Assembly: GCA_001724245.1 (NCBI GenBank)
Contig: MEDX01000009.1
Location: 1 to 64,000 of the forward strand
DNA: 64,000 nt
DNA from: Fonticula-like sp. SCN 57-25
Taxonomy: Eukaryota
Direction: 5' to 3'
The translations under genes were made by a program, and so were the position numbers. The notes under the pieces are model-generated. The model saw only the letters and a list, made by a program, of their open reading frames with translations, did no database searches and was not told the origin of the DNA. This document shows, in pieces, positions 1 to 60,604 of this stretch. Numbering within the stretch: the stretch's first letter is position 1; every line of letters starts with the position of its first letter.

Positions 1-2
1 AC

Positions 3-128
3 GTCGAGGAGGACAGCATTCATGTCGAGTTCCAGGCTATCATGCAGTCCGCCTTCTCGCCGGACGTCGAGCGTCGCCCGAACATGGCCCTCATCAGCAG
101 CAAGATCGCCGCTCGTCTTATCTCTTAA
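3..128 (+). CDS. 3' end of a probable protein kinase (partial, begins before the window)
   Basis: Frame reads VEEDSIHVEFQAIMQSAFSPDVERRPNMALISSKIAARLIS*. DxxRRP resembles kinase subdomain XI. An AT-rich 3' UTR follows. Confidence 0.5.
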   Translation, partial: VEEDSIHVEFQAIMQSAFSPDVERRPNMALISSKIAARLIS

Positions 129-485
129 TGAGACTTTGCCTTGAAGCATTCGTTATTTTTTTGGTTTTATTTTTGCGCAAGTGCATTCATGTGGTGTGCT
201 TGTTGCTAGCAGATTTCTAGTTTAAAGGCGTTGGCTTTGGACGCGCTGTTCGATTCCCGCCCCCATCCCTGCCCATGTTCCATCAGTTGTTATCAATAAA
301 AGTTGCTTTGCTTTTCGCTAATCGTCAATTGACAACGGGCGAGGAATCCCTACAACGGTGGTATATCGAGAAGAATGACAAAGATATATCGAGTACAATG
401 ATGAGAACGATGCAGATTTGTGGTTGTAATGCGAGCTATAAACGATAAAAGAAGAATGCAAACTTGGCCTACTATCGACGGTGTG

Positions 486-2447
486 TCACTCGGTGTGTTG
501 ATTCTCCAGCAGAGATTCGTCCTTTGTTGCGAGCATGATACCCGGCCAGGCGCCAGGTTCGTACCAGTAAGCCGGTACCGGCAACTGTACCGCGTGGATA
601 GCGGGGGCCTTGAGAGCACGATCGTGATAATTGGGTGAGATGACGGGCTGGGCAGCTTCCTGCTCCCTTTGGCGGCGGCGGCTTGTGAGCGAGAACCAAG
701 AGCCTCTCGACGGTGTGCTTTCCGTCGGCTGCTCGTTTACTCGCTCGTCGGCGTTCTCGCCGTGGTCTTCTTGGTGGTAGGATTGCCTCCGGAATATCAA
801 AAAGACTGCAAAGTAGAATAGAGCCGTGAAGGACTCGACGAGCGCGTTCTCGAGCCAGTCTTGTCCGACGACAAAGAAGCGCATGCCGAGGACGCACAAC
901 AACAAAAATATAAAATAAAAGCCAAAAGCTCGTTGGAAAAGTAGCAGCGCTCTGATTTTTAGCGCCAAAGGCTCACCCGGTGTTATCCGGCGCTCGCTCC
1001 GGATGTAGTGCACGATGATGGCAATATTCAGGTACACGAACCGCGTCGCCAGAATGTCCATCACAATCACGGCAATCTGCGCATCGGGCGTTAGCCTCGC
1101 CTAGACTTGAATCATCCAGCAAATGCCGTGGCGTACCAGAAAATATGAGCTTGCGAGGTCGACGATGAGGCTAGCCGCGACGACGCCCAGCGCCGTTACT
1201 GTTCATCGCGCAAGTAGAAAAACAAAGGAGCGGTGTGAGGCCACGCGGCAAGCAAGGAGCACTCGTGCGTACCAATAAGGTGAACCCACTCGCTGCGCGC
1301 AACGGTCGACACAAGGATGCCCCAACCCTTGGCGATGAGGAACGACACCATCATCAACCCAAACTGAAAGACAAAGTACAGCGTGTAATACGAAATGAAC
1401 AGCGAATTCGGTTTGAAGCCTGCCGGAACAAAGCGGAGCGCGTTAATGACCATCAGAATCAAACAATATGGCCTGGTCAATATGGCCAGGAAACACAACA
1501 AAAAAGTGCGCTTTCCCTTGGTTTTCCTCCTTTAATATGTCAGACTTCGCACCTTGCTCGTTCGCGGCGACCCACATAAACCGCCCGATGATGACAGCTG
1601 CGAGCTTGATAGAGGGCAGGAGGGTGAGAACCACGTGCAGGGCGATGAAGGGCTGCCGCCAGTTCCACGCCCAGTTTGTCAGCCAGAGAAAGTTGATGAC
1701 GCCCCATATCACGCATAAGGCAAAGTACACGTCGGGCAGCGGGGCCTCAGAGGTGCTCAGGTGGCCAGTAGGATTTTTGGCCATAAAGCTAAAGTCGATC
1801 TCAAAGGACGTCGTCGAGCAGGAGAACAGCCACAAGGAAAAAATGTCTGCGTGAATGATGGTATCCGACACGTCCAGCTCATCGCTGTCCATCATCCACT
1901 GGAACGTGCACGACGGTGGGACAGTCCAGTTTGCAAAGCACTTGGGATCGGGGAACGGACGAAGCTGCCCCATAGATGAGCAAGAAAAGAAAAAGAAAAG
2001 CAAGATTGAAGCAATAGATAATGAGCAAGGTTGTGAAAGATAAGACAATTGATAAAAATGTAGGACGCCAATAAAGAAAAGAGGAGCCAAAAGGCGGCCA
2101 AGGCGCAGTCAACGAGCACAAGGAGGGAAAGAGCATTGGTGGCGGAGAGAAAAAATAAAAATGAAAAAAAGACAAGGTATGGGAATAAATGCAAAAAAAC
2201 GTACATCACGCTCGTCCGCTGGGGTGCAGTAGAGGAGCACGAGCGGCTGGTCCGGCGTCACGACGTTTGGGGCGACGGTCGAGAGAGTGATGCGAAAGGA
2301 GCTCCCAGGCGCATAGCCATACGGCTGATCAGATGAAGTGTATATAGAAAACCCGGTTCCAACCTGAAGGACGGCGCTCTCCTTCAGCGCAGACGTGCAC
2401 GCCACGAGCGACACCAAAAAAATTGCCACATTTAGTTCTATTCGCAT
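486..2447 (-). CDS. GOST-family seven-transmembrane protein (GPR107/GPR108/TMEM87-like), multi-exon
   Basis: Signal peptide MRIELNVAIFLVSLVACTSA, luminal domain ending KNPTGHLSTSEAPLPDVY, then TM helices including LIAKGWGI. Interrupted by GT-AG introns. Confidence 0.8.
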
Positions 2448-2600
2448 GGCGGCGGATGCTGCCCTCCCCGCAATCACGATTGTTGTCACTATCGGGTCAC
2501 TATCAGCTGAGTTGGGAGCGATTTTGTATGAGCAGTCAGCATTGTGGATAAGACCATTCGTTGAAGACCATCATTGCGTCACGCTTGCCGGCCAAAGTAC

Positions 2601-4691
2601 ATGGCGTCAAAGTCGGTTCGGCAAGGGCGCGTGAGCCTCGGGTCGCTGGACGCGTCGCTGGCGCGGGCGGTTACCCTCTACGTTGGTATGGCCGCTATTC
2701 GTGTTCTGATGGAAACGCGTTCTGAACTTGCATCGGATAGGCGGCGGGGAACCCTTGACCGAGTCGGCGCTTCGTCGGCTAGAGGATCTGTCGCTAGAGG
2801 AGCGCGGCGTACCGGTCCATGGAGACGGTCTTACGTGTCGTGCGTGCCAAGCAAAGTTTGACACGGCGGATCTCCAGCGGAACCATTTTAGGGAAGACTG
2901 GCATCGGCTGAATGCCAAGCGCGCCATCAGCGGCGAGGCGCCGCTTTCGCAGGCGCAGTATGAGGAGCTTGCCGACGAGCTCTCCAGTCTCTCTGCATCG
3001 GCGTGCAGTTCTATGGGCAGCGACGATGGCGACAGGCAGAGGCGACAGCACGTGGAGGAAGAGGAGGAGGAAGGACCGTCGTGGGCGTCGCAAATGGACC
3101 GCTCGCCGCACGTAGAGTTTTCAATGAAAAACGCGCCAGACGACGGCCTGCTTGTATGGAAACCAATGTTACTCGCGGGAAAAGTGAGCGCCATGAACAT
3201 GGGTGCGGTCCTTTCCTCGCTCTCGCAGTGCGTATTCCGCTCACCAGTGTGTCGTTTCCTGCCTGCCTTTCCCTCTGCCCTCTGTCTTCTTGGGCATCAG
3301 ATCTCCAGGGCGTATCGGACGCTGTGTTGAACCAACTGCGCGCGCTCCTTTCCGGGCAGTTTGCGTGGACAATTCTCATGTGCAGCGGTGGTCACTTTGC
3401 TGGTGCGTGTCTCCGCGGGAATCAAATTCTTGAATCCAAAACGTTTCACCGCTACACGACGCGGCGCAAGCAGGGCGGCAGCCAGGCGGCTAGCGACGCG
3501 TCGGGCCGCAAGGCGCAGTCTGCGGGCGCCTCGCTCCGCCGCAGCCAGGAGATGATGCTGCAGCAGGAAATTCGGCAGCTGCTCGCGTCATGGAAAAAGC
3601 ATATTGACGCGTCGACCCTCGTGTTTCTAAGCGCGCACGGCACCAGCCGCGACATTTTCCTCTCGTACGACCAATCGCCCTTTGCAAAGCGTACGCCCGC
3701 CTCCACCATTTCGGTGCCACTACTCCCTTTTGCTTACTAACAGCCGGTATGTAGAGGACCAGCGGCTCCGCAAGATTCCTTTTACCGTCCGTCGGCCGAC
3801 CAAGAGCGAGATTGAGCGGGTGCGTGACGAGCTGTGCACCGTCCAGTTCTTCAAGCGGGACAAGGTGGAGGCCGCCCCGGCGAAGCCTGCGGCGCCCGCG
3901 GCGGGCAAAGTAGAGGAGCGCGCTGCGCCGGTGCGCGCTGAGCCGCTCTCCAAGCAGGACCGGCTGCGCCTCCGCGTCTTCTTGGCAATTGACAAGGACC
4001 GCGTACGGCTGCTCTGCGCACCTGTCGAGAAGCGCACATGCTAACCCACGTCATAGGCCGATGTCCTGACCGACATCCTGCGCGATAACCCAGGTGGGGA
4101 GGTACTCCAATGGCGCGATGCGCAGGGAAATGTACGCACTCGCTCGCGCGCCCATGCCGCCTCTTACCCGACGCCCACAGACGCCCTTGCATGCCGCCGC
4201 GCGGCTCAACAACCATGCCATGATTACGCTGCTGCTGGAAGCCGGCGCGAACCCAACGCTCCTTTCGTCAAGCAACGACAAGGCACGCTCGCGCGCATTG
4301 TGTTATTTTGTTAACGTCTTTTGCGATGTAGCCGTTCAATCTGGTGACGAATAAGCGTGCGCGTGGTGCCTTTCTGCGCTTCCGCTCGGCGCACCCGACC
4401 AAGTGGGACTATGTGTCCGCCGGCCTGCCTGACCCGCCGGCCGCGCGCTCGGAGCCTCCCGCTGCGGAGCCGTCGCCCGCGCCCGCGCCGGCCGTGGGCC
4501 TCAAGACTCTGAGCCTCGCGGGTATCACGCCGGTGACGTCGGGCGCGACGGCGGCGGCGTCAAAGCTGCCCGCCAACTCAAAGCTGGCGGCCGCAAAGAG
4601 GATATCGGCCGACACGCAGAGCACGGTCGAGCGGGAGAAGCGTGCGGCGGCAGCCGAGCGACGTCTGAAGATGCTCGCGGGCCAACAGTAA
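2601..4691 (+). CDS. ANKZF1: ANKZF1/Vms1 ribosome quality control tRNA endonuclease
   Basis: C2H2 finger CRAC...HFREDWH, VLRF1 domain SGGHFAGA...KTFHRYTTRRKQGGSQ...SAGASLRR, ankyrin repeat TPLHAAA, and C-terminal VCP-interacting motif REKRAAAAERR. Confidence 0.95.
4283..4331 (+). other. GC-AG intron in ANKZF1
   Basis: AAG|GCACGC...TTAAC...TGTAG|CCG. Splicing gives NPTLLSSSNDK-PFNLV, restoring the frame and the ankyrin spacing. Confidence 0.75.
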
Positions 4692-4841
4692 TTGGGGGTA
4701 AAGTGGACGAAAATGGGTATGTCGGGAACGATACTGTATCCATATCATAGTGTACAGGAATAGTAAATGAAAGGAACTGAGAAAAATACAACTGAAAATA
4801 CGAGAGGGGAAAGGGAAGGCCAGACGAAAAAGAAAGATGCG

Positions 4842-5739
4842 CTAAGAGCTGTTCCAGTCCTGCCAGTTGAACTTTAGATTCGTCATGGTCTGTACCTTGC
4901 CGGAGAATGCGGTGAGTGGGTTGTGACTGAGGTCAAGCTCGCGTAGCATGAAGAGCTCCGTGAGCTCGGGCGGGATGGTTTTAATGCGGTTGTAGCTCAA
5001 GTTGAGTACGCGGAGCGACTTGCTGGTTGCCATCTCGAGCACCACTTCCCTTTGAACGTCCGTGATCTTGCCCTCGTGAAGGTCAATTTCCTCGAGGTGC
5101 TGCATGCGCGCGAGTACCGGCGGGATGCTTGTGAAAGCGTTGTGGAACACCTTTAGGTTGGTGATCTGCAGCTCGCTCAGCGTGCTCGGCAACGAATCAA
5201 GCTCATTGTCATTGAGCGTCAGTGTTGCGAGACGACGAAGACGCGAAATTTGGGGCGAAAGGGTCGTCAGCGAGTTGTTTGATAGCATGAGTGACGTCAG
5301 CGAGTTGCCAATGTTGAACACGGCGTCCGGGACGGTGCGGAAATTGTTGAAGCTGAGGTTTAGCGTCTGGAGCGACTTAAGCTCGGCAATCGTCTCTGGG
5401 AGCGTCGAAAGGCGGTTTCCTTTCAATCCAAAAGCGTGTAAGTAACAATTTTGAGTGAAATTACGCAGCAAATACCGTCCAGGTGCAGCGCGGTAAGGTT
5501 CTGCAGCTGGCTGATGCGCGGAGGGATCGACGTGATTTGGTTGCCCGCCAATGTCAGCTCCGTCAGCGACTTGACGTCAAAGGAGCCCGACGGAACCGAC
5601 TTTAGCTCATTGTACCTGTCACAAGAGTATGCACTTAGCATTCGTGCCAAAAAAGAGCGCAGCGGAGGCAGACGCACCCCAAGTCGAGCGAGTTGGTCTG
5701 CTCGGCCCGCTTCAACTCCTTACTGAACTGCCCGCCCAT
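4842..5739 (-). CDS. Small, probably N-myristoylated leucine-rich repeat protein (LRRC57-like), 3 exons
   Basis: Starts MGGQFSKELKRAEQTNSLDLG (MGxxxS motif), followed by typical LxxLxLxxN repeats. Confidence 0.8.
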
Positions 5740-6154
5740 GGTGGCCACGTGGATGAGATCGGTAAACCAACAAAACGTCGTACACAAAACACATGCCCGC
5801 GTATTACAACGCCGCGCAGTGAAACTATGTGGCCCCTTTAAAGGCAGAATATGGACGGAAACTGTGGGGCAAGCGCCCCGTGCTTCAAAAAAACATTCTC
5901 TCGGACGAGTATGAAGAAATGTGTATATTTCTCATTTAAAAATCTGCCGCACAGGACTCGAGAGGAACTGCTCAAAGCACCAATGGCGGAAATGTACGCA
6001 AGCGTCACCAAAAACGAACAGAAAGGAAATTTTAAACTACAAAGCAAGACAATGGAGATGAAGAGAGAGTGAGAGAGAGAGAAAAATAAAAACAGAATAC
6101 GACAAAGTGCCTGTTCTACATTGTCAATGAACGAAACACTGCACGGGCGAGCGG

Positions 6155-7204
6155 CTATTCGGCGCCGGGCCCCGAGGAAGGCGCGTGCCGCTGCTGGGCA
6201 AACTGGCCGAGCGACGGCGAGGCAAACTGGTGGAGGTACTGCGGCTGCTGCGGAGCCTGGTTAAGATGGAACGGATACATTGGCTAGAGGAATCGCGTGA
6301 GCTGCAGTGGCAAGGGCGACGACTGAACGCACCGCCTGCATGCCGTGCGCGTCATGGGACGATCCCGCCATCTGCGCGTGCGAGATGCTGCCGGGCAGGC
6401 CAGGGGCAACGTGCTGCGCCTGCTGCTGCGCCTGCTGCTGCTGCTGCTGCTGGAGAAGCTGCTGCTGCACCATCTGCTGGCGGAGCATCATCTGCTGCTG
6501 CATCTGCACAACGACATCAGTACACACAATAAAAAGTCGTCAATGCCGGCGGCGGCGGCGTACAAATGGCGTCATCGGCGGGTAGTAGTAGTTCTATATA
6601 AGGACAGCGTTGTTAGCTACACGCGTAAAGTGCAACTCGAAGGGCGTACGCTCATGCCCATTTCAATCTTCTTGGCGGCGGGCTTGATGTCGTCACGCGG
6701 CACAATGTCAATCAAAAAGTCGAAAATGTCCGTCTTGGTGATGGCCATGGCAATGTCGTTGCGCTGGAGCGTGCGGCGCTTGTTCTCCTCGGTGTGAACC
6801 CAGGCGCGCATCGTGAGCTCGAGCACAAACATCTCGCAGGCGCGAGCGAACAAAACCGGCGCCTCAGCAGAAATCATCTAGCACGAAAATGCGTTAGACG
6901 GGCATCGAAAGGCGACCGTCGAAAACAGCGCACCATCGTCTTGACATCCTCGTCCGTCTTCATGACCTTCTTTATCCGGGCAAGGGGAAGCTCATGGTTC
7001 TTAAAGTCATGCTCCTTGGACGACTCGGCCTAAAGGGCAGAAGCACATAAACGGTCAGCACACCCAAGCCTCGCCACCCAAACCGCGATGCAACCGTTTT
7101 TCCTTCCTCGATCCCGCGCGCCCTCACCCGCGCGCACAACCCCTACTACCCCCATCCCCGCCGACGTCATACCTGACTGATCTGCTGCTGCCAGAACAGC
7201 TGGA

Positions 7205-7235
<31 letters not shown>

Positions 7236-7286
7236 ATGGTACTGCGCGTCGTGCCCATGACCCTGAATATGCCCGTCGTCGCCCAT
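6155..7286 (-). CDS. NFYC: CCAAT-binding factor subunit C (NF-YC/Hap5) with Gln-rich tails
   Basis: FWQQQ...[46 protein letters not shown]...[10 protein letters not shown]...[10 protein letters not shown]. Confidence 0.97.
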
Positions 7287-7460
7287 GATCGCTCACTATT
7301 TCCCGCGCTTGACAGGTGAAAGGTAGGACGAAAACGACTGGTCGGCTAGCGCGCCAGTGACCGTTGGTTTCGCTCAAAAGAAGCGCGAAAAACAATGACC
7401 GGGGGTACCACCCAACGCCTACCTCGAATCCAGAGAGGTGGGCCCCCATCAAACGCACAT

Positions 7461-7477
7461 CACGTGATAGTCACGTG
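7461..7477. promoter_or_regulatory. Tandem TCACGTGA E-boxes in the NFYC/ALG11 bidirectional promoter
   Basis: CACGTG at 7461-7466 and 7472-7477, 5 nt before the ALG11 ATG. Confidence 0.65.
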
Positions 7478-7482
7478 ATATT

Positions 7483-9162
7483 ATGGCCTGGCTGCAGCTG
7501 GCGGGGATGGCGGTGCTGCTGGCGGTCGTCTGCTTGGCGTGGTGCGATCTACATGGTGTGGACTGCAAAGATCGCTGACCGTGAGTTTAGGCTGTATATA
7601 TTATGGAGGAGGGGGAGGCAGAGACGGGCGGCTCTTGGAGATGGAAAGGTTGTCGCTTTCTTCCACCCATACTGGTGCGCGCGCGTAGCCCAACACCGCA
7701 CGGTTAACGTCAGATGCGTAGTAATGCGGGTGGAGGCGGCGAGCGCGTTTTGTGGACGGCGGTAGAGGCGCTGCAGGTCATGTATCCTGATGTGCGCTGC
7801 GCCATCTTCACGGGCGACTCGGCTTCCGACGCGGACATCATTGCGAATGTTGGCGATCGGTTCGGGATCCGCCTGCGGCAGGCGGCAGGCGGTGATGCGC
7901 CCAGTTCGCTGCTCTTTGTTCGCTTGAAGCGTCGCAAGTGGCTTGAGGATAAGAGCTACCCTCGCTTTACACTATTGCTCCAGTCACTGGGCTCTGTCTT
8001 TGTGGCGCTGGAAGCGCTCTCCCTCCTCGTCCCTGACGTCTTTATCGGTACGGTTCAGAATGAAATTTCAGTGTACTTGTTGTTTTGTTGAAGTTTTTTT
8101 AATATTTTCATGTTGTCTATTGCTATTTTTCCTTGTTTTGTTGGGTTGTTTTTTATTAGCTGCTAAACATGTTGCCCTGCAGACTCGACGGGCTTTGCGT
8201 TCACGCTGCCCGTGTTCAAGCTTGCCGGCAGCCGCACTGCGGCGTATGTGCACTACCCGACCATCAGCGTTGACATGCTGAGCAAGGTGGCTTCGCGGCG
8301 CGCCGACTATAACAACGCGTCGAGTGTTGCATCGTCGCGGGTGCGCAGCACCGCCAAGCTGGTGTACTACCGCCTGTTCGCCGCTCTGTACGGCCTTGTT
8401 GGACGCTGCGCAGACCGCGTGATGGCCAACTCGACGTGGACGCGCGGCCACATTGAGAGCTTGTGGCGCATCCCAGTCAGGACGTCAACTCTGTACCCTC
8501 CGTGCGGCGGCCGCGCGCTCCTCGCTCTCCCCTTGGGCGGCCGCGATGCGCGCATCCTCTCCATTGGCCAGTTCCGCCCGGAAAAGAACCACGCGCTGCA
8601 GCTCTCCTCCTTTGCGCGGCTTGTTGAGCGGCGGTCACGCGCGTCGCTGCCTGCCCCCACGCTCGTCCTCCTGGGTGGCTGCCGCAACGCCGAGGACCAG
8701 GCGCGCGTTGAGGCGCTCCGGCAGCTCGCCACCACGCTGAGCGTTGACAGTCACGTGGAGTGGCGCATCAATGTGTCGTATAGCGCGCTCGTGGAAGAGT
8801 GCGGGCGCGCGCTTGTCGGACTGCATACGATGGAGGATGAGCACTTTGGCATCGGCGTCGTCGAGTACATGGCCGCGGGCCTCGTGGCCATCGCGCACGA
8901 GAGCGCCGGCCCGCTAATGGATATTGTCGTGCCGCTTGAGGGCGCGCAGACGGGCTTCTTGGCCAAGGACGAGCAGCAGTACGCCGACGCCATGGAGCAG
9001 GCGTTTGCCTTGACAGAGGAGAGGCGCGTCCGGATGACCACAGCGGCGCGCATGGCCGTGAAGCAGCGCTTCATCGGGGACGACAAGGAGACAAGATTCT
9101 CAGAGCCGATTTTTGCACTCGGCTTCCTCGGTGCGATCGGGCCGCTCCTGGACAACAACTGA
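7483..9162 (+). CDS. ALG11: GDP-Man:Man3GlcNAc2-PP-Dol alpha-1,2-mannosyltransferase
   Basis: N-terminal TM, AFFHPYCNAGGGGERVLW, YVHYPTIS, NSTWT, GQFRPEKNH, EHFGIGVVEYMAAG. Confidence 0.97.
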
Positions 9163-9349
9163 ACCATACCATTGTACAAACCACACTATGTTTATCCTTG
9201 TATTATGAAGGCTTGAAGAGTGAGACGCTCGATACACATGAGACACAAAAAGTACTAGGTGTGTATTGATACAGTAAAGTATGTACAAAATGGCGTGAAT
9301 GTAAATCGTGTGAATTGTAAAGGGGGGAATTGAAGGCGAGCAGCGCTCC

Positions 9350-10093
9350 TCACGCGGCCGTCTGCGCAGCGGCCGGCGCTGCGGGCGGCGCGTGTGCCGC
9401 TGGTGGCGAAGCGACGGCCTGCTGCAAGATGCGCTCACCGGCCGACGCCTCAAAGAAGGTGTACGATAGCGTGATAGAGTCAACGTCAAGCATAAGCAAA
9501 TCATTCTCAAACTCTGGGTCGATGTAGAAGAAGACCGGCATATCGACGGTCTCGTGGGCGCGCAGCCGCTGGTACTCAAAGCAGAAGCACTGGATCTTGT
9601 TAAAGTACGCGCCGGCCTTGTTTGGCGTCACATTGTACGTCGCAATGCCCGTGATATCACGGTCGCTCAGGTTCTCCGCCGTATAGAAAGCAAGCGCAGT
9701 CTCGCCCACGCGCACCTGCAGCTCCGTCTGCTGCGGCCTAAACTTCCAACGCAGCCGCTGGCTGGCATCGGCATTGAACCTGATCTTGATCACTCGCGCG
9801 TCAGGCGAAGGCCCCGCAGGAATCGCCCCGGACGTATTTCCGTGAGCGGAGCGCGGCGTCCCGCCGAACCCGGTCGTCTGGCAGAAGAGCCGATACAGCG
9901 GGACCGCCGCGTACGACAGGCCGACCACGGTGATGGCGCCCGCGCAAACATACATGACAAGCGTCTTGTTGCGCTCCGCATAGGGGTTGGGTCGGGGAGG
10001 AGGGGAAGTAAATGGCTTCGCAGACGACGCAAAGCGACGACACGACGCCGAGTACGAAAAGGCGGACGACGCCTGCCGGATGCCACGGAACAT
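9350..10093 (-). CDS. COX11: Cytochrome c oxidase copper chaperone Cox11 (intronless)
   Basis: Mitochondrial presequence, SYAAVPLYRLFCQTTG, YFNKIQCFCF, DMPVFFYIDPEF, ITLSYTFF. Confidence 0.98.
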   Translation of the reverse strand: MFRGIRQASSAFSYSASCRRFASSAKPFTSPPPRPNPYAERNKTLVMYVCAGAITVVGLSYAAVPLYRLFCQTTGFGGTPRSAHGNTSGAIPAGPSPDARVIKIRFNADASQRLRWKFRPQQTELQVRVGETALAFYTAENLSDRDITGIATYNVTPNKAGAYFNKIQCFCFEYQRLRAHETVDMPVFFYIDPEFENDLLMLDVDSITLSYTFFEASAGERILQQAVASPPAAHAPPAAPAAAQTAA

Positions 10094-10210
10094 CTTGGGC
10101 GCCTCGGGTGGTATCACGTGATTTGACGGCCGATTTTGAAAGTCTGCGCCTGGTCTGCGCGGGAAGACGTTTTGCCGGATTTTGCACTTGACACAGCACG
10201 GAACAAGGAA

Positions 10211-12561
10211 ATGTCAGGAACACTAGTGAGGAAATTGGCGACGTTCAAGCCGCACAATTCGGCGGTATGTGCCTTTTCACGATCTATGCAGTAAACGCAC
10301 TTCTAACAGCGCCTCCTTCATGGTAGGTTTGGGGGTGTGCAATCTCTGACGACGGCAAGTGGCTGGCGACGGGGAGCGATGACGGAAAGCTCTGCGTCAG
10401 CAATATGTCCACGCAAGAGCTCGTCTATTCCACCCAGAGCAGCGATAGTGTACGATTTGCTTCTATTTGTGGGTGCTTTTTTGTATTGAAAAAGGAGCGT
10501 AGATTTGCGATGTTGCTTGGTCCAACGGAGGGCTTTTGGCCGCAGTCACCAGCGGCGGTGAGGTTATCAAAGTAGTCGAAAACAGCGCGTCCTCTGTTGT
10601 TCATAAGAACAAGGCCGGGGTATGCGGGCGTGGCTGCTGCATCCTTTTATGGTCGCTCGTGCTAATAATGTATTCTCATAGCTTGGCGGATGCGCATTCG
10701 GTAACGAAGATTTGCTGACGGTAGTAGGCCTTGGGAAGGAACTTACGATGATACAACTTTCCCAGCGTAATTATCCGACAGAAGTTTCGCAGGAAATGCC
10801 GACACCTTGGGTACCATCAAAGTCGCCTATTAATGGGTTGCTCTGACGATTTCCTTTTACAGTTGTGGAGAACGGTGATTTCATTTTCGGGTTTCGCATT
10901 TGCAGTCGGGTGCGAAAAGGGCCTGGTCCTTGTTATGCGAGGAGGAGTGGACGAAAATAGCTCGAGGTGTTTAGCGCTTGAGTGCGGCAATCGTTTGGTG
11001 CGATATGAACCTTGCAAGTGACCATGCGTCTGACAAATTCCCGGAATCAGGTTCGGTCGCTTTGCTTCAGCCGATGTGAGCGATATCTTCTGGTCACCCT
11101 CGACGATTGGACGGCCGCAATTCATGACGTTCAGTCTGGCTTTGCTGGTCAGAAGATCAGCCCAGTGGTTCTAAAGGGACATGATGGTAAAGTCGTTGGC
11201 GGGGCCTTCCTCGACTACGCCGCGACGACCGTCATTACTGGCTCGATGGACGGCACGCTTCGCGTCTGGAACGCTTCCGACGGTACCCAGATTGCCCGCT
11301 ATTTTTGTGGCGAGGTGCGCCGATATTTTTTGCTATGTTGTGTGTGTACAAGGGGCTGACTTGCTTTTCAAGTTGACCTCTCTGTCGTACTGTATCTCCA
11401 CGAGGATTCTGGCCGCGGGCCTTACCAATGGCGCGATCGAAATATGGCAGACGGACGCCACGGGTACGTCTGAGCAAGACGCATTAAGTGAGCAAGAGGG
11501 AGCTGCGCGCGAGAAGCCCCCGCCTTCCGGTAGCCTTGCCCACGCGGTTTGGAGCCAACGAGGGCCGGATACTCCGCTCGAGCGGCTTTATGTCTCATTA
11601 AACTGCCGGGTTATTATGTCTACCCCCATACTGAGAAGAAGTAAAGAGATACCACGTGGCCCTGTCATCCCGGGCGCTTCAGACCCCCTTCCTTCGTCCC
11701 CTTGCGTCCGCAAGCGGCTCCAGGAAGCGCAGGCGCAGGTTGACGCAATCAGCAAGCATGAAGAAAACAAAATCGGTCTTTGTGAAAAGATGGCGCGCGA
11801 GCGGGAATTGACGCAATCCATCCGTGACCTCGAGAGCAAGCGTGCGTACTTTTGTTGATTCTTCCGCGTGAAACTAACTTGGCACTGGTGCAGTGGCGAG
11901 CGAGAAGGCGGCGCTTGAGGAACTGCGAACCGCAGAGTATGTTTCAGAATCGCAGGACCTTTCCGCGCTGATTGAGCGCCGCGAGTCGCTGCGAGCGATG
12001 GTCCATCAGTGCAATCAGACGCTGGATAGCCTGGCCGACTGCCTGGCCACGACCGGGCTTGAGCAGCTGGTTGGCCCGCGCTTTAGCGAGTGGCTCTGCG
12101 ACGTTGGGCTTTGGCACCTGCACGATGCGCTCAAGGACGTTGACGGGGAGTCACTCACAATGTTTACGATTGACAATGTCATAGAGTGCGGCGTGTCGTT
12201 CAGCGACGCGGCCGCTCTGCAACTGCGCGCGTACATTGCGCATTGCCAGCTGGGTGAGGATCGTGCGTGCGAGCCTCCGGAAGACACGGTGCTTAGTTGG
12301 ACGGATGAGGAAACGGCAGACTGGATTGGGTCGCTGGACCCTTCCTACGCTTGCCTTGCATCAGCAAACTGGCACGGAGCCGCGCTGTGCTCACTGTCGC
12401 CACTTCGTGTTATGGAGGCGAGCAAGGGCACGCTCAAGTCGACAGACGCTGTCAAGTTTCTCTCGCTGGTCAGGGCAAAGAGAAGAGAAGAGGACGGAGA
12501 CCGGGACTCGTGGGTTGTGCGGTGGACAGGTGCTAATACCATCGAGTCGCAAGTGCCCTAG
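10211..12561 (+). CDS. WD40-repeat protein with a coiled coil and two C-terminal SAM-like domains (exon structure partly uncertain)
   Basis: PHNSAVWGCAISDDGKWLATGSDDG and LKGHDGKV...ITGSMDGTLRVWN repeats. C-terminal FSEWLCDVGL...VDGESL and WTDEETADWI...WHGAALCSL are SAM-like. Confidence 0.7.
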
Positions 12562-12876
12562 CCAGCAAGGAAAAGTCGCGAAACTGTAAGTTTGGAATAT
12601 ATACGTGCAAATGGCAATATTTTCATTCAGACGAGCGGTGGCAAATATAGATGTGTTCACTATGCGCGGATTATCCCAGGCCTACGTGCGTGTGTATTTC
12701 CCGCTATGTGCCGCTCCCTATCGCCAACCCCCATTGACCCCATCTCATGTGTGCAGATGGTGACTGTGCATGTCAACCATGATCCGATCGGGATCCGACT
12801 GAATCCGGATAAACGAGTTTGGTGGGTGCCTTGGCTTCTTTGTTCCTCCCCTCCTGCGGTCGTGTTGGTGCAAGTC

Positions 12877-14989
12877 ATGGCAACCGCGGCGGACAAGAAG
12901 CGCCTTGAGCAGAAGCAGGCGGCGATCCTTAATGATCTGCTCGCCCGCCCCGAGAACAAGGTCTGCGCCGACTGCGGCGAAAAGGGTATGTTTTTCTTGT
13001 TTCACTTGTTTTGGGGAAAGATTCCATTTCAGGTCCCTTACGAATCGTCGCTCTTTCCGTCCCCTTTCTTCACCAGGTCCTCGCTGGGCGTCATGGAACA
13101 TTGGTTGCTTCCTGTGCCTTCGCTGCGCCGGTGTTCACCGTCGCATGGGTGTGCACATCTCAAAGGTCAAGTCGGTCACGCTCGACACCTGGACCGAGGA
13201 GCAGCTCGAGGTACGCGCCAATGCGTGACGGCAGGGGTTGTAAAAGACCCTGCGCCGCCTCTGCACTCCCCTGTGTCACGCATGCCTTGCTCATATATTG
13301 ACTCGTTTTTTGCGTGTAGTCTATTCGTACGAAGGGCAACAGCATTGTGAACAACATGTACAACCCTGGCGATCGCCACGCCATGTCGTCCAAGACGGAC
13401 GAAAAGTATGATTTCCCCCTGACACTTTGGCGCATGCTGACCTGCTCGCAATAGTATTGTAGAGCTCTGGATTCGCGACAAGTATGAGCACAAGCGCTTT
13501 ATGAACTCTGGCGACCGCCTCGGCGTTCCCTCTGGCGCCACCGAGTCGCGGTCCCGCGGCAACTCGTTCAACCGCAACGACAACGCTGGTCAGATTAGCC
13601 GCCTGATTGATATGGGCTTCACCAACCGCGACCTGAACGCGGAGGCGCTCCGCCGCTCCAACGGCGACCTCAATGGCGCCGTGAGCTACCTCGTTCGCCA
13701 CCAGTCTGGTGCCGCGGCGCCCGCGGCCGCCGGCCCTGCCGCCGACCCTGCCGCCGTCACTGCGATCATGGGAATGGGCTTCAAGGACGAGGCTCGCGTC
13801 CGCAACGCCCTCAAGGAAACGCACGGCGACGTCCCCAAGGCCATCCAGCTCCTCAGCCAGCCCGCTGTTGCCGCCGCGGCCCCCAAGCCGGCTCAGAATA
13901 ACAACCTCTTTGGCGGCGACGACTTGTTCGGCTCCGCCCCGGCCCCGGCTGCCTCCAAGCCGCAAGCGCAGGCTTCGTCGGGCGCCGACTTTTTCGGTGC
14001 CGCCACTGCTCCGGCCGCCGCTAACGCCGGCTGGGGAGACGATCCGTTTGGCATGGCCCCCGCCGCCGCCAAGCCCGCCGCTGCGAACCAGACGTCGGCC
14101 GATCTCTTCCAGGGTGCGCCGCCTTAACTAAACGTGTTCATTGGTTGCTGATTGGGATTGCCTTTTGCGTATTCAGAGTTTGCCGCTGCCTCGGCCGCCC
14201 CGCCGCCCAAGGCCTCCAAGAACGACATCATGAACCTCTTTGGATCGGCCCCGGCCCCCGCCGCCGCCGCTCCCGTACGCCACTCTCTGTCTCTTTGCCG
14301 CGCGGTCTGCTGACTTCCCCGTTTTGCAGCCGAGCATGTTTGGTGCCCCGCCGCAGCAGAACGCCTTTGGCGCGTCGCCGTTTGGCGCCGCCCCGCCGCA
14401 GCAGGACGCGATCGGCGATGCCTTTGCCCAGCAGAACGCCTTTGGCCAGCCCGCCCAGGGCCCCTATGGCCAGCAGAACGCCTTTGGTCAGGCCCCCGCC
14501 GGCAACTTTGGCCAGCCTGCCCCCGGTGCTTACGGCGCCAACCCCTTTGGCGGCGCCCCTCAGCAGCAGCAGCCCGCCGGTTTCGGTGCCAGCCCGTTCG
14601 GCGCCGCTCCCCAGCAGCAGCAGCAGCCCGCCGGGTACGGCGCCAGCCCGTTCGGTGCCGCTCCCCAGCAGCAGCCCGGCTATGGTGCCAGCCCGTTCGG
14701 CCAGGCCCCCCAGCAGCAGCAGCAGCCCGGATACGGCGCCAGCCCGTTCGGCCAGGCCCCCGCTGCCAATGTACGTTGCAGTCATTGAGGCTCTGTTTTT
14801 CGTGTCGCTGACGCAGTTTCGTCTCTCCTGTAGCCTTTCGGCGGAGCTCCCGCTGGCTACCCTGCGCAGAACAGCAATCCGTTCGGCGCTGCCCCCGCTC
14901 CTCAGGCGGCGCCCGCGGCGGGAAACCCCTTTGGCTCGCCCGCGGCTCCCGCTGGCAATGATCCTTTTGGAACTCTCATGTGGAAGTAG
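12877..14989 (+). CDS. ArfGAP with two UBA domains and an NPF/FG-rich tail (SMAP/Gts1/Ucp3-like)
   Basis: [36 protein letters not shown] motifs LIDMGF and MGMGF. Tail has [11 protein letters not shown] and repeated ASPFG/NPF units. Confidence 0.92.
14340..14770 (+). repeat. Coding tandem repeats ([17 protein letters not shown]) in the ArfGAP tail
   Basis: Repeated GGCGCCAGCCCGTTCGG...CAGCAGCAG units. Confidence 0.85.
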
Positions 14990-15388
14990 AACGGACGCCC
15001 TGCTTTGCAAGTATCCGACCCTAAAATTAGCCCATGCTGAGTGAATCGCTGTTCTTTCTCTTTCGTTCAATATTATATCCCTTGTAGTTTGTTTGTTGTT
15101 GCGTTCATGGTCTTTTTTCTTCCTTGTTCCATGGTCTTTGTGACTTGCCGGGACAAGGGGGCTGCCGCGCCCCGGCGTGTGCGCGCGCCTCGATCTCAGC
15201 AACGTTGATAGTTTTCCTTTTACCCACACGCCTGTGCCACAAAGAGCCGCACTCGGGTTTTTGACCGTGTGAGGCCGCGCTGAATAACAATGCTTGTCCA
15301 TTTACATTCTTGTGTACAATTCAACTCGTGTGGGATAGTATGGCATATGAGTACAAGGAGCACTCGCTGTGGCTGCGTTGATAGTTTG

Positions 15389-16168
15389 TTACCTTGCGGT
15401 CCAGCCTCCGTCCACCGGGAGGCTGACGCCAGTCATGTTGGAGGCGGCGTCGGTCATGAGGAACACGGCCAGCGCGCCGATCTGATCCGCCTCGACGAAC
15501 CTCTTTGTCGGCTGCTTGTCGGCAAGTAGGTCCTCGGAGGCATCATGAATAGACATGCTCTTTGCCGCCGCGCGCGCCTCGATCTGCTTCTCCACGAGCG
15601 GGGTGCGGACCCACCCGGGGCAGATCGCGTTGCATGTAATGTTGAAGGCGGCCAGGTCCAGAGCGGTCGCCTTTGTCAGACCGATGACGCCGTGCTTCGC
15701 CGCCACGTACGCTGACTTGTGGTCCGACGCAACAAGGCCGTGGACCGACGCGACGTTGACGATGCGGCCAAAATTGCGGCTCTTCATGCCGGGAAGAACG
15801 GCCTTGGTCGCGTGAAACACGGCGCTCAAATTGATGCGGATGATGCGATCCCACTGGTCGTCCGGGAACTCGGAGATGTCGGACACAAACTGCACGCCGG
15901 CATTGTTGACAAGCGCATCAACAGAACCAAAGCGCTCCTCCGCAGTACGGATCAGGTCGCGAATCTCGCTCGGAGCCTCCATGTTGGCCGGGTGGTAGGC
16001 GACCTGCGTCCCCTCGCGACCGACAACCTCCAGTGAGGACGCGATTTGCTCCTCTGTACCAAAGCCGTTGAGCATGACATTCGCGCCCGCGCGAGCATAC
16101 TGCGTCGCAATAGCGAGACCAATGCCGCTCGTGCTTCCGGTAATGACAGCGGTGCGACCTGCCAACAT
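15389..16168 (-). CDS. bdhA: D-3-hydroxybutyrate dehydrogenase, bacterial type (SDR), intronless
   Basis: TGSTSGIG, VMLNGFG, NNAGVQ, SVHGLVAS..KSAYVAAKHG, ICPGWVRTPLVEKQI, KQP, VDGGWTA. Confidence 0.93.
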   Translation of the reverse strand: MLAGRTAVITGSTSGIGLAIATQYARAGANVMLNGFGTEEQIASSLEVVGREGTQVAYHPANMEAPSEIRDLIRTAEERFGSVDALVNNAGVQFVSDISEFPDDQWDRIIRINLSAVFHATKAVLPGMKSRNFGRIVNVASVHGLVASDHKSAYVAAKHGVIGLTKATALDLAAFNITCNAICPGWVRTPLVEKQIEARAAAKSMSIHDASEDLLADKQPTKRFVEADQIGALAVFLMTDAASNMTGVSLPVDGGWTAR

Positions 16169-16751
16169 CTTTGTCAGATCTTTGTTTGGCTCGGGTGATG
16201 ATCGACTGACCACGTGGCCAAGATTACACAGTGCATTTGTTTGAATAAAGTACAACCAACCCCGGCGACCGCAACGGCAATCAAAATATGGCATATCCAT
16301 ATATATCCTACTCTAGGTTATAAAGCAAACACATGTCATAAGAGTTTGCGGCTGGAATACTCTCTGGTTTACCACAAACGAGCCTCAAAGTCGGACGCAT
16401 TTTGATGTTTGAGGTCGATATACTAGGTGAAATGGCTTGACGCCCAATACATGAGCCTAAGGGAGGCATATCTGCCTCATACAGATGGGTAGGTTCAAGT
16501 GCTACCAAAAACACGCAAAAACACCTCTACAAATATAAAAATGAAAAGAACTTCCATGGCAGGATCAAAGTCACCATATGTGATATAGTGAAAAGTAGCT
16601 ATACTAATTTTCGCGTTTTCGGCCTTCTACGTCAAACACCTAAATACAATATTGTGATAGATATATTTTTTTCCTACTCGGTGCATTAATGCGCATTGCT
16701 TCACGTATCCTATTCACCGAGTAATAGCGGCCCGAAGGAAAAAAAGCCACA

Positions 16752-16799
16752 AAAATCAACGCAAATCAGTCAGCAAATCAGCAAAATCAGCAAAATCAG
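16752..16799 (+). repeat. Short tandem repeat of (C)AAA(A)TCAG-like units, about 5 copies, upstream of RIOK3
   Basis: aaaatcaac gcaaatcagt cagcaaatca gcaaaatcag caaaatcag. Confidence 0.7.
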
Positions 16800-16862
16800 T
16801 GTTGGTGTTGCGTCACCGTCAACTTTTTGCTGACACAGTTCTCTGCGCACACGGCCGACATC

Positions 16863-19053
16863 ATGGCGACGCCCCCGACCACCGAAGAGCCCATTTCTGC
16901 CGCGGAGACACCGCCCATTTCCACCCCCGCTGCTCCCAAGCAGTGGTCCAAGCGCGAGTGGGCCAAGCCTTCCTTTGCTGACATCATGGTAGAGCAGCAG
17001 GCTAGTCGGCGGGACGCGCAGCAGCACGTGCGCCATCCTCGGCCATCACATATGCCTGTCACGTACTCATGTTGTCTTTGCAGGCCACTATTTCTGATGG
17101 CGCGGAAGATGACCCTGATCTTGCCCTGGCGCTTCGACTGTCACTGGCCGAGGCCGAGTCGTTGGCCGCAGAGAGCACCGCCTTCGCCGAGAGCAATGCT
17201 GTCGCCGAGAGCTCTGCATCCGCCGCTGCGACCGAAGAAGATGCCGATCTTGAGCTCGCTCGCCGTCTACAAGCGGAGTGGAATAGTGAGGACCAGGGTG
17301 CTTTAGATGGCGGTGCGGTGGTGATCCCCCCGGAAGAGGACACGACGAACGACGACTTTGTCGCCGCGCTCAAGCTGCAGGCAGAGTTTGACGAGGAGCT
17401 GAGGCGGTACGAGGCCCGAATCCACGGCAATCAGAGAGGTGCGCGGTGGCCAAAAAGGAAAAATGCAATGAAAAAACCTACTTTATGCTCATCTTTTGCT
17501 TTTAGTCAATTTGACTTCTCAGCGGCTTCGCGAGTCGCTTAGCGGCATCCGGGACGACCCCGACGACCTGAGCGAGCAGCTTCGGCGCATTGACGATGCC
17601 ACATTTGCGCGCGTGCTCAAGACCATTGGGGACAGCGTGGGCGTCACCGAGCAGGGCGAAGAGGAAGCGGAAGAGGAGGAGGAGGAGGACGGCGAGGGGG
17701 GCGAGGCGGCGCCTGCCGCAGCCCAGCGGCGACTCAAAAAGAACATCACTACCAAGCATGATATCCCCATAACGACACGGCGAAACGCCAAAAAGCTTGA
17801 AAATGTGCGCTTTATAAAGAGTATCGTCGTGGCTAACGTGTTTCGTAGCTGAATATGTTTTCGGGCAACACTGTGGACGAGAAAGAGCTCCGCGTGAGCA
17901 ATCGGATTTACAACACGCTTCGCGAGCATTCTCAAAAGTCTGCCCCCAAGAATTCGGCCAAGATGCACGGCAAGGAAGACGTGGCGACGCACCAGCGCGT
18001 GCTTGACCCGCGCACGCGTCTCATTGTGCGCACCGCGTGCTTGTTTGCGTCCCTCTAACGTGATGCGCAGCTTCTTAAAATGTTCAATGCTGGGACGCTT
18101 CTCGACCTGGAGGGCATTGTGAGCACTGGCAAAGAGTCGAACGTGTATGGCGCAATTGCCGGAATGTGCGTCACTTTAAAAGCTTTTCTTCTGCTGACGC
18201 ACTTTGCGCACTTTTCAGCGACGAGAGCGAGGAGCAGGACGGCTCGATTGTGCGCGAAGTGCCCGCCGTGATCAAGGTTTTCAAGACGACGCTTGACGAT
18301 TTTCGGAATCGCTCCGAGTACATCCGTGACGACCCGCGCTTTGCGAACCGCCTGAGCAAGCACAACGCGGGTAAGCTGGTGAAGCTGTGGGCCGAGAAGG
18401 AGATGTACAACCTGAACCGCATGCAGCGCGCCGGCATCCCGTGCCCGCACGTGCTGGCGTACCGCAAGCACGTCCTCGTGCTCTCGCTGATCGGCACGGA
18501 CGGCCAGCCCGCGCCAAAGCTGCGCGACGCAGTTGACGCGCTCTCGGCGGCCGCCGTGACGCGCCTCTACCGCGAGTGCATGCTGCTCGTCAGGAGTCTT
18601 TACCAGGACGCGCGGCTTGTTCACGCCGACCTCAGCGAGTACAACATTCTTTACCACGAAGGGCGGCTTGTCTTTATCGACGTGTCGCAGGCGGTCGACA
18701 TTACGCACCCTCGCTCGCTCGTCTTTCTGCACCGCGACCTCACTATCATGCGCACCTTTTTCGCCAACCGCAACGCGAGCGGAGTGCTCTCGCCGCTCCA
18801 GATGATTGCTTTTGTCACGGATATGCGCGAGGACGCCGACAAGCTTGACGACTATGACGCGCTCGCCGAAGAGGCGCGCCAGCGCGTCAGCAGGTCGGGA
18901 CTCGCCGTCGATGTGGACGAGCGGCTCACAGAGAACCGCTCTACGGACGCCGAGGAGCTCGTGCGCGTCATGGAGGTACTTTTGCCAAACTACTGGCCGC
19001 CGCGGCTCGTCGACGAGCACGAGCACGTGGACGAGGGCACTGTAATTGTGTAA
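16863..19053 (+). CDS. RIOK3: RIO kinase 3-like atypical kinase
   Basis: RIO domain (STGKESNVY, LWAEKEMYNL, LVHADLSEYN, IDVSQ). RIO3-type N-terminus with SFADIM, LQAEFD, TTKHD...RRNAKKLE, NRIYNTL. Confidence 0.88.
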
Positions 19054-19129
19054 GAGAATGGGAATTCATGTCTATACAATACAATACATTTTATTAGACT
19101 ATACATGGTGGGATAATGTGATACACTGG

Positions 19130-20736
19130 CTACGCTGCGCTGCGAGCGCGCCGCTTTACAAAGTCGACCACCTTTTCGTGCCCCGCAGCGGACACGACGA
19201 GCATCCCGTTGCCGTTGTGGAGCGCCGAGTAGAGCAGCACGTCGAGGTCGTTCGCGTACGCGCGCGTGGCCTCGTACTCTGAGAGGCTCGAGAAAGAGTC
19301 GTACAGCACGCCCGCCTGCGGGTTGATGCGGTCGCGCTCCGACTGCCACAGGCGGATCTGGTCGGCGACCGTCGGCGGGATCCAGTGGGCGCGCGTGCGC
19401 GCCTGCGGGTGGCTGTTGGTCCGCAGGTAGCCGAGGATCTGCTCGGCCGTGATGCCCTTGAGCAGCGCCGCGCGGATGCTCTCGCGGCGAATGGTGAGCA
19501 CGGCCATGTTGGCGAAGCGGTAAATCAGGTGGCAAAAGTGCTGCAGGATGGCGATTTGGAGAGGCGAGTCTATCAAAACAAGTTAAAAAGGGCGGCGCGG
19601 CGGCTGTGGCGTACCAGTGTACGCATAAACGCGATAGTTTGTCTCGACCACAATGAAGCCTTCCTCCTCTTGCGAAGGCGCGTTCGTCACGCCTGATATC
19701 AAAGTCGTCGCAAGGCGCGTCGGGTAGTACGACCGCGAGTCGGGCTGCGCGGGCGTCAACTAAAACCATAAAGAGAATATAAATGTGCGCACCTTTCGCC
19801 GGTAGATAAGCCCAAAGTCCTTGAGGTCCTCCAGCAATGTCAGCTGCACGTCATTGAGGCCCCGCACGTCATACTGTCGCCCGAATGTCATGCTGCCCAG
19901 CTGCAGCAGAAAATTAACCACGTCCGTTCGATCCATATTTAAATCCTAAAAAAAGGTCAGCAAAAGGACCGCGGTCATCTTTGAGGGCAACTCGTACCTT
20001 GGCCATGTCGACGTATTGCAAAAGAAAGGCCCACACCTGCTCGTTGACGCTCTGCAGGAGGAATTGAAACCCTTTGGTGGTGATCTCTAGCTTGCCATGG
20101 CTACCACTGCCGCCCACAATTAGCACGGTGGGGTATCGCGAGTGCGGGGATGCGGGATCGTACGTGTCCGTCATCAAATTTGATCTTGTCAGGAGGCTGC
20201 GGACGCCGTCCGAAGGGTTGACGACGGCCGGGATGCCGACCATAAAGTACAAAATGCTTTCCCACCGGTCCTTTGCTGTCTTCTCCAGGATGGCTTCTAT
20301 TGACGCGCCCGACGACGACTCCCTTTCCTCCCCGCCGTACGCCACGCCAAAGCTCTCTGCCGGCCCTGAGCCGAGCAGCGCCGCCTCAAAGTGCCGCCGA
20401 AAGGTCGGCGAGAGGGATACCGTGTCATTACTCATCACGCAGACGCGCAAAGAAACAAGGCGTGAGAGAGCGGCCTCTGCCACAGAAAGCGACTGGGGCT
20501 GGCACCATGCCAGCACCGACGCCTTTGGGATCGCGCCGAGCGTCAGCATGCGGTAGACAAACATCTGACCGAGGCCGGGGAGCGCCCGAAACACAGCCAG
20601 GCATGTCGCCGGCTGCACAAAGAGCCGCTCAACAGTGCTGCCATTGAGCCCTTCCAGGAACTAGACCAGTGTCAGCGTGCGTGAGGATCAAGGCGGGGTG
20701 GTAGCGCACCTGGAACACGGGCGCCACCGTCGACAT
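19130..20736 (-). CDS. GTF2H4: TFIIH subunit p52/Tfb2
   Basis: [52 protein letters not shown]. Confidence 0.97.
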
Positions 20737-20953
20737 GCTCGGCCAGCTTGCCGCGCTCGGCAAATTGGATGGCCTAGTCAAATCACTGCGAATCAACAGT
20801 TCATTCGTTGATTGCTTGTCTACAAATCAGACGTGTTGCAGGGCGGTGCCAGCATAAACATCAACCGGTCGATCTTTACAGCGACGCGCTTCGCCTGCAT
20901 TCCTGATCTTTAGGCATAGTAGATAGTTGCCGCGAGGAGGGGGCTCGAGCGGG

Positions 20954-23900: not shown

Positions 23901-24313
23901 ATACTGAGCATGTGATGCGGCTGCTGGACGAGCACCTTACCGAGCTGGACCCCGCCAAGGTGCTCGAGCTGCTGCCCGACAGCTGGCACCTGCAGGCGCT
24001 GCGCACCTTTCTGCTGCGGTCGGTGCACCGCTCGCACCACGAGCTGCGCGACGCACAGATCCTGCGCGGTGTCGAGCGCTCGCTCAACATCCAGACGCGG
24101 ACCGAGCTCGCCGAGCTGCAGCGCACGAGCTTTGTGGTGACTGAGCTGACGGGGTGCGGCGTCTGCCACCAGTCGCTCGCGGGCGTCGTCATGGTGCGGT
24201 ACCCGAACGGGCTGCTCGCGCATATGCACTGCGCGCGCGACAAGTCGGTCTGCCCGGCGACGGGGGTCGACTTTAAGAAGCGGCCATGGCGCGCGCCTCA
24301 CGAGCAGCAGTAG
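20954..24313 (+). CDS. TGFBRAP1: CORVET subunit TGFBRAP1/Vps3 (Vps39 family: CNH domain, clathrin-like repeat, C-terminal Zn finger)
   Basis: FYLGTSDG CNH start, GLGIFVS...FPYV, KAGFIAF...F..GGVDVRNLLCLFP, and C-terminal CGVC...RYPNG..HMHC. Confidence 0.82.
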
Positions 24314-24393
24314 AGTTGGAGTGGGGCGGGATAGAGAGGCGATTTGTGTGTATATATAGCATAATATTACATGAACAACAACAACAACATTGC

Positions 24394-26050: not shown

Positions 26051-26372
26051 CGTGACAACACAAACACCGGTTTGACCACGTGGCCATCGCCTGATTTGTG
26101 GCCAAAATTTCCGTGCTCTGAATGGACCATACTGGTACTCGGAGGAAATGCCATAGGAATTAAACAATTGCTTATTATTTGCAAAGAAATGGAGGTGAAT
26201 GTCTTACATAATCTGTACTAAAACACAATACTACAGCATCATGAAACACGTATATGGAGCACGGTCGAGCAAAACATATAGAAAAACGATTGACCACTTT
26301 ATGGACTACTAAACTACGTACATGCCATATGTATAATGCACCGCCTTTTCCAAATTTCCCTGGCCGAGCCAG

Positions 26373-30991: not shown

Positions 30992-31166
30992 TATATATGC
31001 TTGTACATTTCATTATTTATGCATGATTGTCATACCATACCCATACGCTCTCGTGCCGGGACTCATACCAGCTATGATGATTGGCTCGCGTCATATTCAT
31101 TGACCAATCCGGATCGATCACACACACACTGCGCGGCGGCCCTGGTTTGGTGTTGATCCAACAGCC

Positions 31167-60552: not shown

Positions 60553-60604
60553 GGGGATCGCAGGCAGGACGCTCCGCGCACTTTCGAGGCCGTTTTCTCA
60601 GAGG

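Follow-up and report, generated by a model that had tools for sequence, protein, structure and literature searches.

GTRCGY 5′ splice sites in an intron-dense, possibly Holomycota-like eukaryote, and their possible reading by a U1 small nuclear RNA with an altered 5′ end

The subject of this work is the 5′ splice sites (donors) of short spliceosomal introns in the first 64 kb of contig MEDX01000009.1 (GenBank assembly GCA_001724245.1); this whole stretch, positions 1 to 64,000, is called the window below. In the lineage from which the window comes, GTRCGY has replaced GTRAGT as the donor code and GTATG is a minor form; the introns are otherwise ordinary U2-type GT-AG introns. Lineage-wide use of C at intron position +4 (+4C) is already known as a phenomenon; the present organism is a new lineage showing it, intron-dense and with an unusually clean rule that admits GTACG, GTGCG and GTATG only. 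Our tentative explanation, to which we assign a probability of about 0.45, is that the window belongs to an intron-rich, Holomycota-like eukaryote in which the 5′ end of U1 small nuclear RNA (snRNA) has changed to ACGUAC, perhaps to GCGUAC.

Results

Intron calling

Open frames are interrupted every few hundred bases in the whole window, and the exon pieces match eukaryotic protein families. Introns were called from these reading-frame breaks and the genomic DNA. A codon model was trained on the window itself (G+C content at third codon positions, GC3, of 0.81) and defined 177 segments as coding cores. For each of the 103 pairs of adjacent cores on the same strand, every phase-compatible GT/GC..AG intron of 30-400 nucleotides (nt) lacking an in-frame stop was considered as a candidate; at least one such intron restoring an open frame exists for 101 pairs. 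The choice among candidates was made by three procedures. The first used the coding score alone. The second, donor-blind, combined the coding score with an acceptor matrix and intron length and ignored donor positions +3 to +8. The third, the full model, added a donor matrix to the second and is circular for position +4. The donor-blind and full procedures chose the same donor in 77 of the 101 cases, and the 66 introns of 35-120 nt for which they agreed on both ends make up the secure set. In the full model, 99 donors are GT and two are GC.

1..64000 (strand.), 101 short spliceosomal introns, three-procedure calling

Position +4 of the donors is C

Counts at +4 among the 101 introns were C65 T19 A11 G6 when the coding score alone was used, C77 T14 A5 G5 for the donor-blind choice and C89 T11 G1 A0 for the full model; the 66 secure donors gave C61 T5 A0 G0. 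The background is far lower, C following at +4 in 29.8% of 6919 other GT sites and in 25.1% of the 255 phase-compatible GT candidates that were not chosen in the same gaps (binomial p = 8e-22 for the donor-blind set against background). The ten donor-blind picks with +4A or +4G were inspected individually: either an adjacent GTRCG or GTATG alternative exists or the pick lies in a mis-joined gap of more than 180 nt with internal GTRCG donors. All five donor-blind +4A candidates were rejected as true donors on these grounds.

At the other positions, the full model gave A45 G49 C2 T5 at +3, G93 at +5 and C53 T32 A10 G6 at +6, with no signal at +7. The donor consensus is GT-R-C-G-Y and is accompanied by a CTNAY branch signal close to the 3′ end and a YAG acceptor. 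The commonest hexamers in the secure set were GTGCGC (22), GTACGC (13), GTGCGT (9) and GTACGT (7). The same preference is visible in raw hexamer counts, where GTACGC (97 occurrences vs 33 expected from dinucleotide frequencies) and GTACGT (47 vs 17) are enriched and GTAAGT (6 vs 12) and GTGAGT (10 vs 24) are depleted. The introns are short, with a median length of 54 nt, 73 of 101 not exceeding 70 nt and the 5th to 75th percentiles spanning 45-91 nt.

A preliminary description of this DNA, made by eye, had reported about 33 donors in the first 15 kb, about 26 of them with C and about 7 with T at +4 and none reading GTRAG. The proportions and the absence of GTRAG hold up; the count does not, since the caller places 17 donors within 1000-14800 (C14 T3 in the full model; C12 T4 G1 in the donor-blind choice) and three more were added by eye. 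The claim that the pattern continues through the window is borne out, +4C being found in 77-89 of 101 introns across the 64 kb and in 61 of the 66 secure ones. By the same description, a +4C level equal to intronic base composition would have counted against the observation. Intron interiors contain 25.8% C and 36.8% T, as compared with C at +4 in 77 of 101 blindly chosen donors.

A matrix-free test of intron architecture

Every GT in the window was next scored for a downstream intron architecture, namely CTNAY followed after 4-22 nt by YAG at intron distance, with no donor matrix involved. This architecture follows 737 of all 7029 GT sites (10.5%), which served as the baseline. Grouped by class, it was found after 126/508 GTRCG, 27/161 GTRTG, 8/150 GTRAG and 10/131 GTRGG sites. 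Only three of the 16 GTNNG pentamers were enriched: GTACG (57/219), GTGCG (69/289) and GTATG (16/67). GTGTG (11/94), GTAAG (3/32) and GTGAG (5/118) were at or below baseline. The sole GTRAG site that initially looked intron-like, GTGAGG at 21199, turned out to be a decoy inside a GTATGA intron (21178..21233, listed below). A donor class shifted by one position, GTTGCG, was followed by intron architecture at 4 of 42 sites, which is the baseline level, and GC pentamers as a class were not enriched (GCACG 24/258).

Individual introns

Five introns are exact to the residue by continuity of a Pfam profile across the flanking exon pieces, and all five have +4C:

3691..3754 (+), intron with donor GTACGC, Vms1/ANKZF1-like gene; bVLRF1 profile position 110 is followed by 112, the split codon being 111
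8048..8182 (+), intron with donor GTACGG, ALG11 gene; ALG11_N profile 16-113 is followed by 115-209, the split codon being 114
19946..19997 (-), intron with donor GTACGA, TFIIH p52/Tfb2 gene; Tfb2 profile runs to 206 (residue 220 of 221) and resumes at 209 (residue 2)
34505..34554 (+), intron with donor GTGCGT, VPS13 gene; VPS13_N profile runs to 56 and resumes at 61, four residues filling four positions
35369..35415 (+), intron with donor GTACGC, VPS13 gene; VPS13_N profile runs to 336 and resumes at 344, seven residues filling seven positions

At two further junctions, in the Tfb2 (255|315) and RasGAP genes, the profile is not continuous; probably an exon was overlooked or a border wrongly placed by the caller, or the stretch is divergent. 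The Tfb2 jump from 255 to 315 is spanned by a called 252-nt intron, 19541-19792 (-); a small exon may be hidden in it, or the Tfb2 domain may be shortened in this lineage.

One call was revised by eye. The single intron 4003-4093 proposed by the caller was replaced by two introns separated by an exon at 4058-4132; once both are taken out, the sequence reads through an ankyrin repeat, joined as GN|TPLHAAAR.

4003..4057 (+), intron with donor GTACGG, by eye; phase is kept, the caller having used a later acceptor at 4093
4133..4180 (+), intron with donor GTACGC, by eye; same ankyrin join as 4003..4057

Introns with +4T include the following:

12986..13076 (+), donor GTATGT, caller
13406..13454 (+), donor GTATGA, identical choice in all three procedures
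21178..21233 (+), donor GTATGA, by eye; frame open across the join, decoy GTGAGG at 21199 inside
33712..33760 (-), donor GTATGC, caller
55328..55377 (-), donor GTATGC, caller
58415..58459 (-), donor GTATGC, caller

The CTNAY branch signal is recognizable in the majority of the listed introns. Donors that have T at +3 are rare and retain +4C and +5G; besides the intron below, GTTCGT was noted by eye at ~21343 (+).

49125..49174 (+), intron with donor GTTCGC, caller

There are also two candidate GC-AG introns. Both follow AAG or CAG, and their GCACG is the full local consensus except at +2.

4283..4331 (+), candidate GC-AG intron with donor GCACGC; picked by both procedures, a GC start being shared by the top eight of 19 phase-compatible candidates
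25273..25322 (-), candidate GC-AG intron with donor GCACGT; less secure, given a 35-nt GTGCGC..GAG alternative

The set of donors used and pairing with U1

The order of bases at +4, C > U >> A, G, is the one expected for pairing with G. We consider the chances about even that +4 is read in this way, most likely by a U1 snRNA with G at position 5 (G5 U1). The likeliest partner would be a U1 with the 5′ end AUACGUACCUG, in which U5 is changed to G. With such a U1, pairing at +4 would be of the Watson-Crick type for C and a wobble for U, A or G at +4 would be mismatched, and A or G at +3 would pair with the uridine at position 6 of U1.

The pentamers actually used, GTACG, GTGCG and GTATG, are those that pair with C8-A7-U6-G5-C4 of U1 with no more than one wobble, and the best partners of standard U1, GTAAG and GTGAG, are not used as donors in the architecture test. 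Positions +3 and +4 covary: +4T occurs with +3A in seven of eight donors, and +4C is combined with A in 38 and with G in 48 (Fisher p 0.026; 0.017 in the secure set). With +4T nearly confined to +3A, wobbles at neighbouring positions are avoided. The informative observations are the lack of GTAAG and GTGAG and the dependence between +3 and +4, because standard U1 mismatches +4C and +4U alike. In addition, G precedes the intron (position -1) in 29/46 GTGCG donors vs 14/35 GTACG donors (p 0.046), an excess that looks like helix compensation.

Duplex energies were calculated for the 66 secure donors and compared with those of 1500 other GT sites. With the standard U1 5′ end, the median was -3.9 kcal/mol and the area under the receiver operating characteristic curve (AUC) was 0.68; with the G5 U1 they were -9.3 kcal/mol and 0.93, figures that in part restate the consensus.

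At +6 the preferred base is C (53/101), although it can pair neither with the standard nor with the G5 U1.

G5 U1 genes in metagenomes

No RNA gene of any kind, snRNA genes included, was found in the window with Rfam models, either at gathering thresholds or at E-values up to 1. A scan of metagenomes limited to U1 genes that combine G at position 5 with the standard loop motifs, which are short, returned 15 stretches. Real U1 genes, belonging to two organisms, are present in four of these; the remaining 11 match by chance within coding DNA. The same G5 pattern gave seven stretches in contigs of prokaryote genomes, none of them a U1, and the U1 pattern had no match in viral contigs.

Three of the four stretches, L129, L133 and L141, carry the same U1 gene, whose RF00003 score is 70 bits, against a gathering score of 69.5, with the full model matched. 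Its 5′ end AUACGUACCUG aligns to the RF00003 consensus AUACUUACCUG.

L129:1638-1803, U1 gene beginning AUACGUACCUG, also in L133 and L141 (RF00003)

The two genes adjoining this U1 gene contain nine introns, seven with +4C and two with +4T (both GTATGT), none with A or G. The donors of the TatD-like gene are GTATGT, GTACGT, GTACGC, GTACGT, GTATGT and GTACGC, with consistent exon frames and a TatD profile that is continuous at two joins. Those of the AlkD-like gene are GTACGA, GTGCGC and GTGCGT; the frame is kept, and all three joins leave the DNA_alkylation profile continuous to within two residues. The eukaryote that carries L129 thus resembles that of the window in having GTACGY/A, GTGCGY and GTATGT donors in 9/9 introns, here beside a G5 U1 gene. 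It differs in its GC3 (~0.63-0.70 vs 0.81), in its introns of 59-312 nt and in its poor fit to the codon model of the window. The misfit, the lower GC3 and the longer introns indicate an organism different from that of the window. On either side of the L129 U1 gene lie tRNA genes embedded in GCAAGAGA/GCAAGGGA and CAAT-type microsatellite arrays, and microsatellites likewise abound within the introns of the genes next to it.

The fourth stretch lies on a 1.9-kb metagenome contig with 44% GC (L137:224-1683). It holds three U1 paralogs that differ only at position 5 (ACGUAC, ACAUAC and ACUUAC), together with two U5 genes and a tRNA gene. The three variants would match +4C, +4U and +4A, respectively; with no genes beside the cluster, the contig offers no donors for comparison.

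Discussion

Comparison with published systems

Donors with +4C have been described in several lineages. According to Roy and Bowser (bioRxiv 10.1101/2022.06.08.495308), Mastigamoeba balamuthi combines GUGCGC donors with a U1 that reads ACGUAC, Micromonas and a further four Mamiellales combine GYGCGY donors with standard U1, and Thecamonas trahens prefers +4C, again with standard U1. The GTGCGTG donors of Ostreococcus were described by Irimia and Roy in 2008 (PMC2483917). The organism of the window resembles Mastigamoeba balamuthi: both are intron-rich, with G or A at +3, C at +4, G at +5 and a +6C that is left unexplained. The difference is that an ACGUAC U1 is known in Mastigamoeba, whereas here the code is read from the donors. 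With Mamiellales the window shares +4C and +5G in most introns, a GC-rich genome and a CTGAC-type branch signal. Mamiellales, however, have a fixed +3G, a donor signal extending to +7, few introns and standard U1, while in the window A and G are equal at +3, there is no signal at +7 and introns exceed 1.5 per kb. The apusomonad Thecamonas trahens offers a +4C preference in a relative of opisthokonts, stated as a preference for C, beside the 88% C and 0% A seen here.

The background given in the preliminary description, a +4 switch between A and U connected with METTL16, agrees with Parker et al. 2023 (PMC10581693), where this switch is linked to METTL16 and SNRNP27K and, among 240 species, the ACAGA box and the ACUUACC of U1 are invariant. 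As in the Saccharomycotina GUAUGU donors treated in that work, +4A has been lost lineage-wide in the organism of the window. Unlike in Saccharomycotina, where the replacement is U and both U1 and U6 are unchanged, the replacement here is C, with U minor; a +4U majority was not observed, +4T accounting for 11-14 of 101 donors.

The terms SS+4C, cytosine, Fonticula, Micromonas and Thecamonas are absent from the main text of PMC10581693, and a 2025 review (PMC11732430) does not mention these +4C lineages. Among the papers listed by our literature searches we found no description of donor motifs of Fonticula or nucleariids; in its accessible part, PMC8476143 uses Fonticula only as an outgroup.

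Co-evolved or standard U1

If donors and snRNA had co-evolved, the organism's own U1 would begin with AUACGUACCUG or AUGCGUACCUG; if its snRNAs were standard, it would begin with AUACUUACCUG. Several points weigh against a changed U1. Support for a G5 U1 in this organism is indirect and follows in part from the consensus itself. The G5 U1 locus L129 belongs to another organism, and none of the 15 metagenome stretches has the composition and intron style of the window or could be tied to its organism. The frequent +6C (53/101) would gain nothing from the G5 change, as it pairs with neither U1. Counts are small in the tests of covariation and of compensation (p 0.02-0.05). Finally, +4C does not require a changed U1, because Mamiellales and Thecamonas, two of the three +4C lineages examined by Roy and Bowser, have a standard one. 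The preliminary description had read genome-wide +4C as a sign of a rewired spliceosome, with an altered U6 box, a variant U1 5′ end or loss of METTL16/SNRNP27K; indirect evidence favours the variant U1, but a rewired snRNA does not follow from +4C alone.

The last point leads to the alternative that we take most seriously and regard as quite possible, namely that U1 and U6 are both standard and that the GTRCGY preference is set elsewhere, by U1C, Prp8, other proteins, snRNA modification or later proofreading, as has been inferred for Mamiellales and Thecamonas. There, a single strong U1 candidate with a standard pairing region was found in five Mamiellales and in Thecamonas trahens despite their +4C donors (bioRxiv 10.1101/2022.06.08.495308), and the GTGCGTG donors of Ostreococcus have been on record since 2008 (PMC2483917). 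The lack, in our metagenome scan, of a G5 U1 gene attributable to the organism of the window and the inability of U1 pairing to explain +6C would also fit a standard U1. What such a U1 leaves unexplained is that its own best partners, GTAAG and GTGAG, are at or below baseline and that +4U is tolerated only with +3A. Moreover, at an intron density above 1.5 per kb, donors with a median of -3.9 kcal/mol to such a U1 (AUC 0.68) would be hard to tell from decoys.

Loss of METTL16 and/or SNRNP27K as the sole driver of the shift appears unlikely. Such losses do change the +4 preference in Saccharomycotina (PMC10581693), but the change linked to them is from A to U, whereas in the window U is minor (11/101) and C dominant, and an unmethylated A does not pair with C. 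An altered ACAGAGA box of U6 with a G facing +4 is still less probable. It would also be expected to yield the order C > U >> A, G, but positions of the ACAGA box are 100% conserved in 240 species (PMC10581693), and the dependence between +3 and +4 would be left unexplained because U6 does not pair with +3. An artefact of intron calling or of GC-rich composition can practically be dismissed: although the calls come from DNA alone and the donor matrix of the full model is circular for +4, the donor-blind (77/101) and coding-only (65/101) choices far exceed the 29.8% background and the 25.8% C of intron interiors, and both the five profile-continuous introns and the matrix-free architecture test agree with +4C.

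Significance

A change of the donor consensus throughout a genome means either that an snRNA moves together with thousands of introns or that proteins alter the preference, and both kinds are represented among the published +4C lineages. A lineage that is dense in introns, lacks GTAAG and GTGAG and allows as donors the partners of a G5 U1 makes a sharp prediction about its own U1 gene. Should that gene prove to begin with ACGUAC or GCGUAC, tens of thousands of donors and an snRNA would have co-evolved on the opisthokont side of the tree, and the switch would have taken place in an intron-dense genome, where it is hardest to explain. Taken with L129 and the three-variant cluster of L137, this would point to position 5 of U1 as a dial that evolution turns repeatedly to set the +4 base. 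For annotation, the shift means that gene callers trained on GTRAGT will put exon borders in the wrong place, both in this organism and in those related to it.

Gene content of the window and placement of the organism

The GC content of the window is 58% overall and varies between 55 and 62% along its length. Protein families found in it include Vms1/ANKZF1-type bVLRF1, ALG11, COX11, TFIIH p52 (Tfb2), Vps39, RasGAP with C2, and VPS13. A search with COX11 found the window's own protein on six contigs, and the other best matches were opisthokonts, at 47-63% identity. Eleven of 13 matches to Tfb2 carry the names of chytrid or zoopagalean fungi (34-38% identity). Both searches are weakly compatible with a deep, fungus-side (Holomycota-like) placement of the organism and do not prove it. 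Archamoebae are not known to have cytochrome oxidase; since the window encodes COX11 and its Tfb2 matches are fungal, the organism is probably not an archamoeba.

Long CAG/CTG runs of the poly-glutamine type are located at 6400-6520 and 7180-7240, within coding exons of a minus-strand gene at ~6190-7290.

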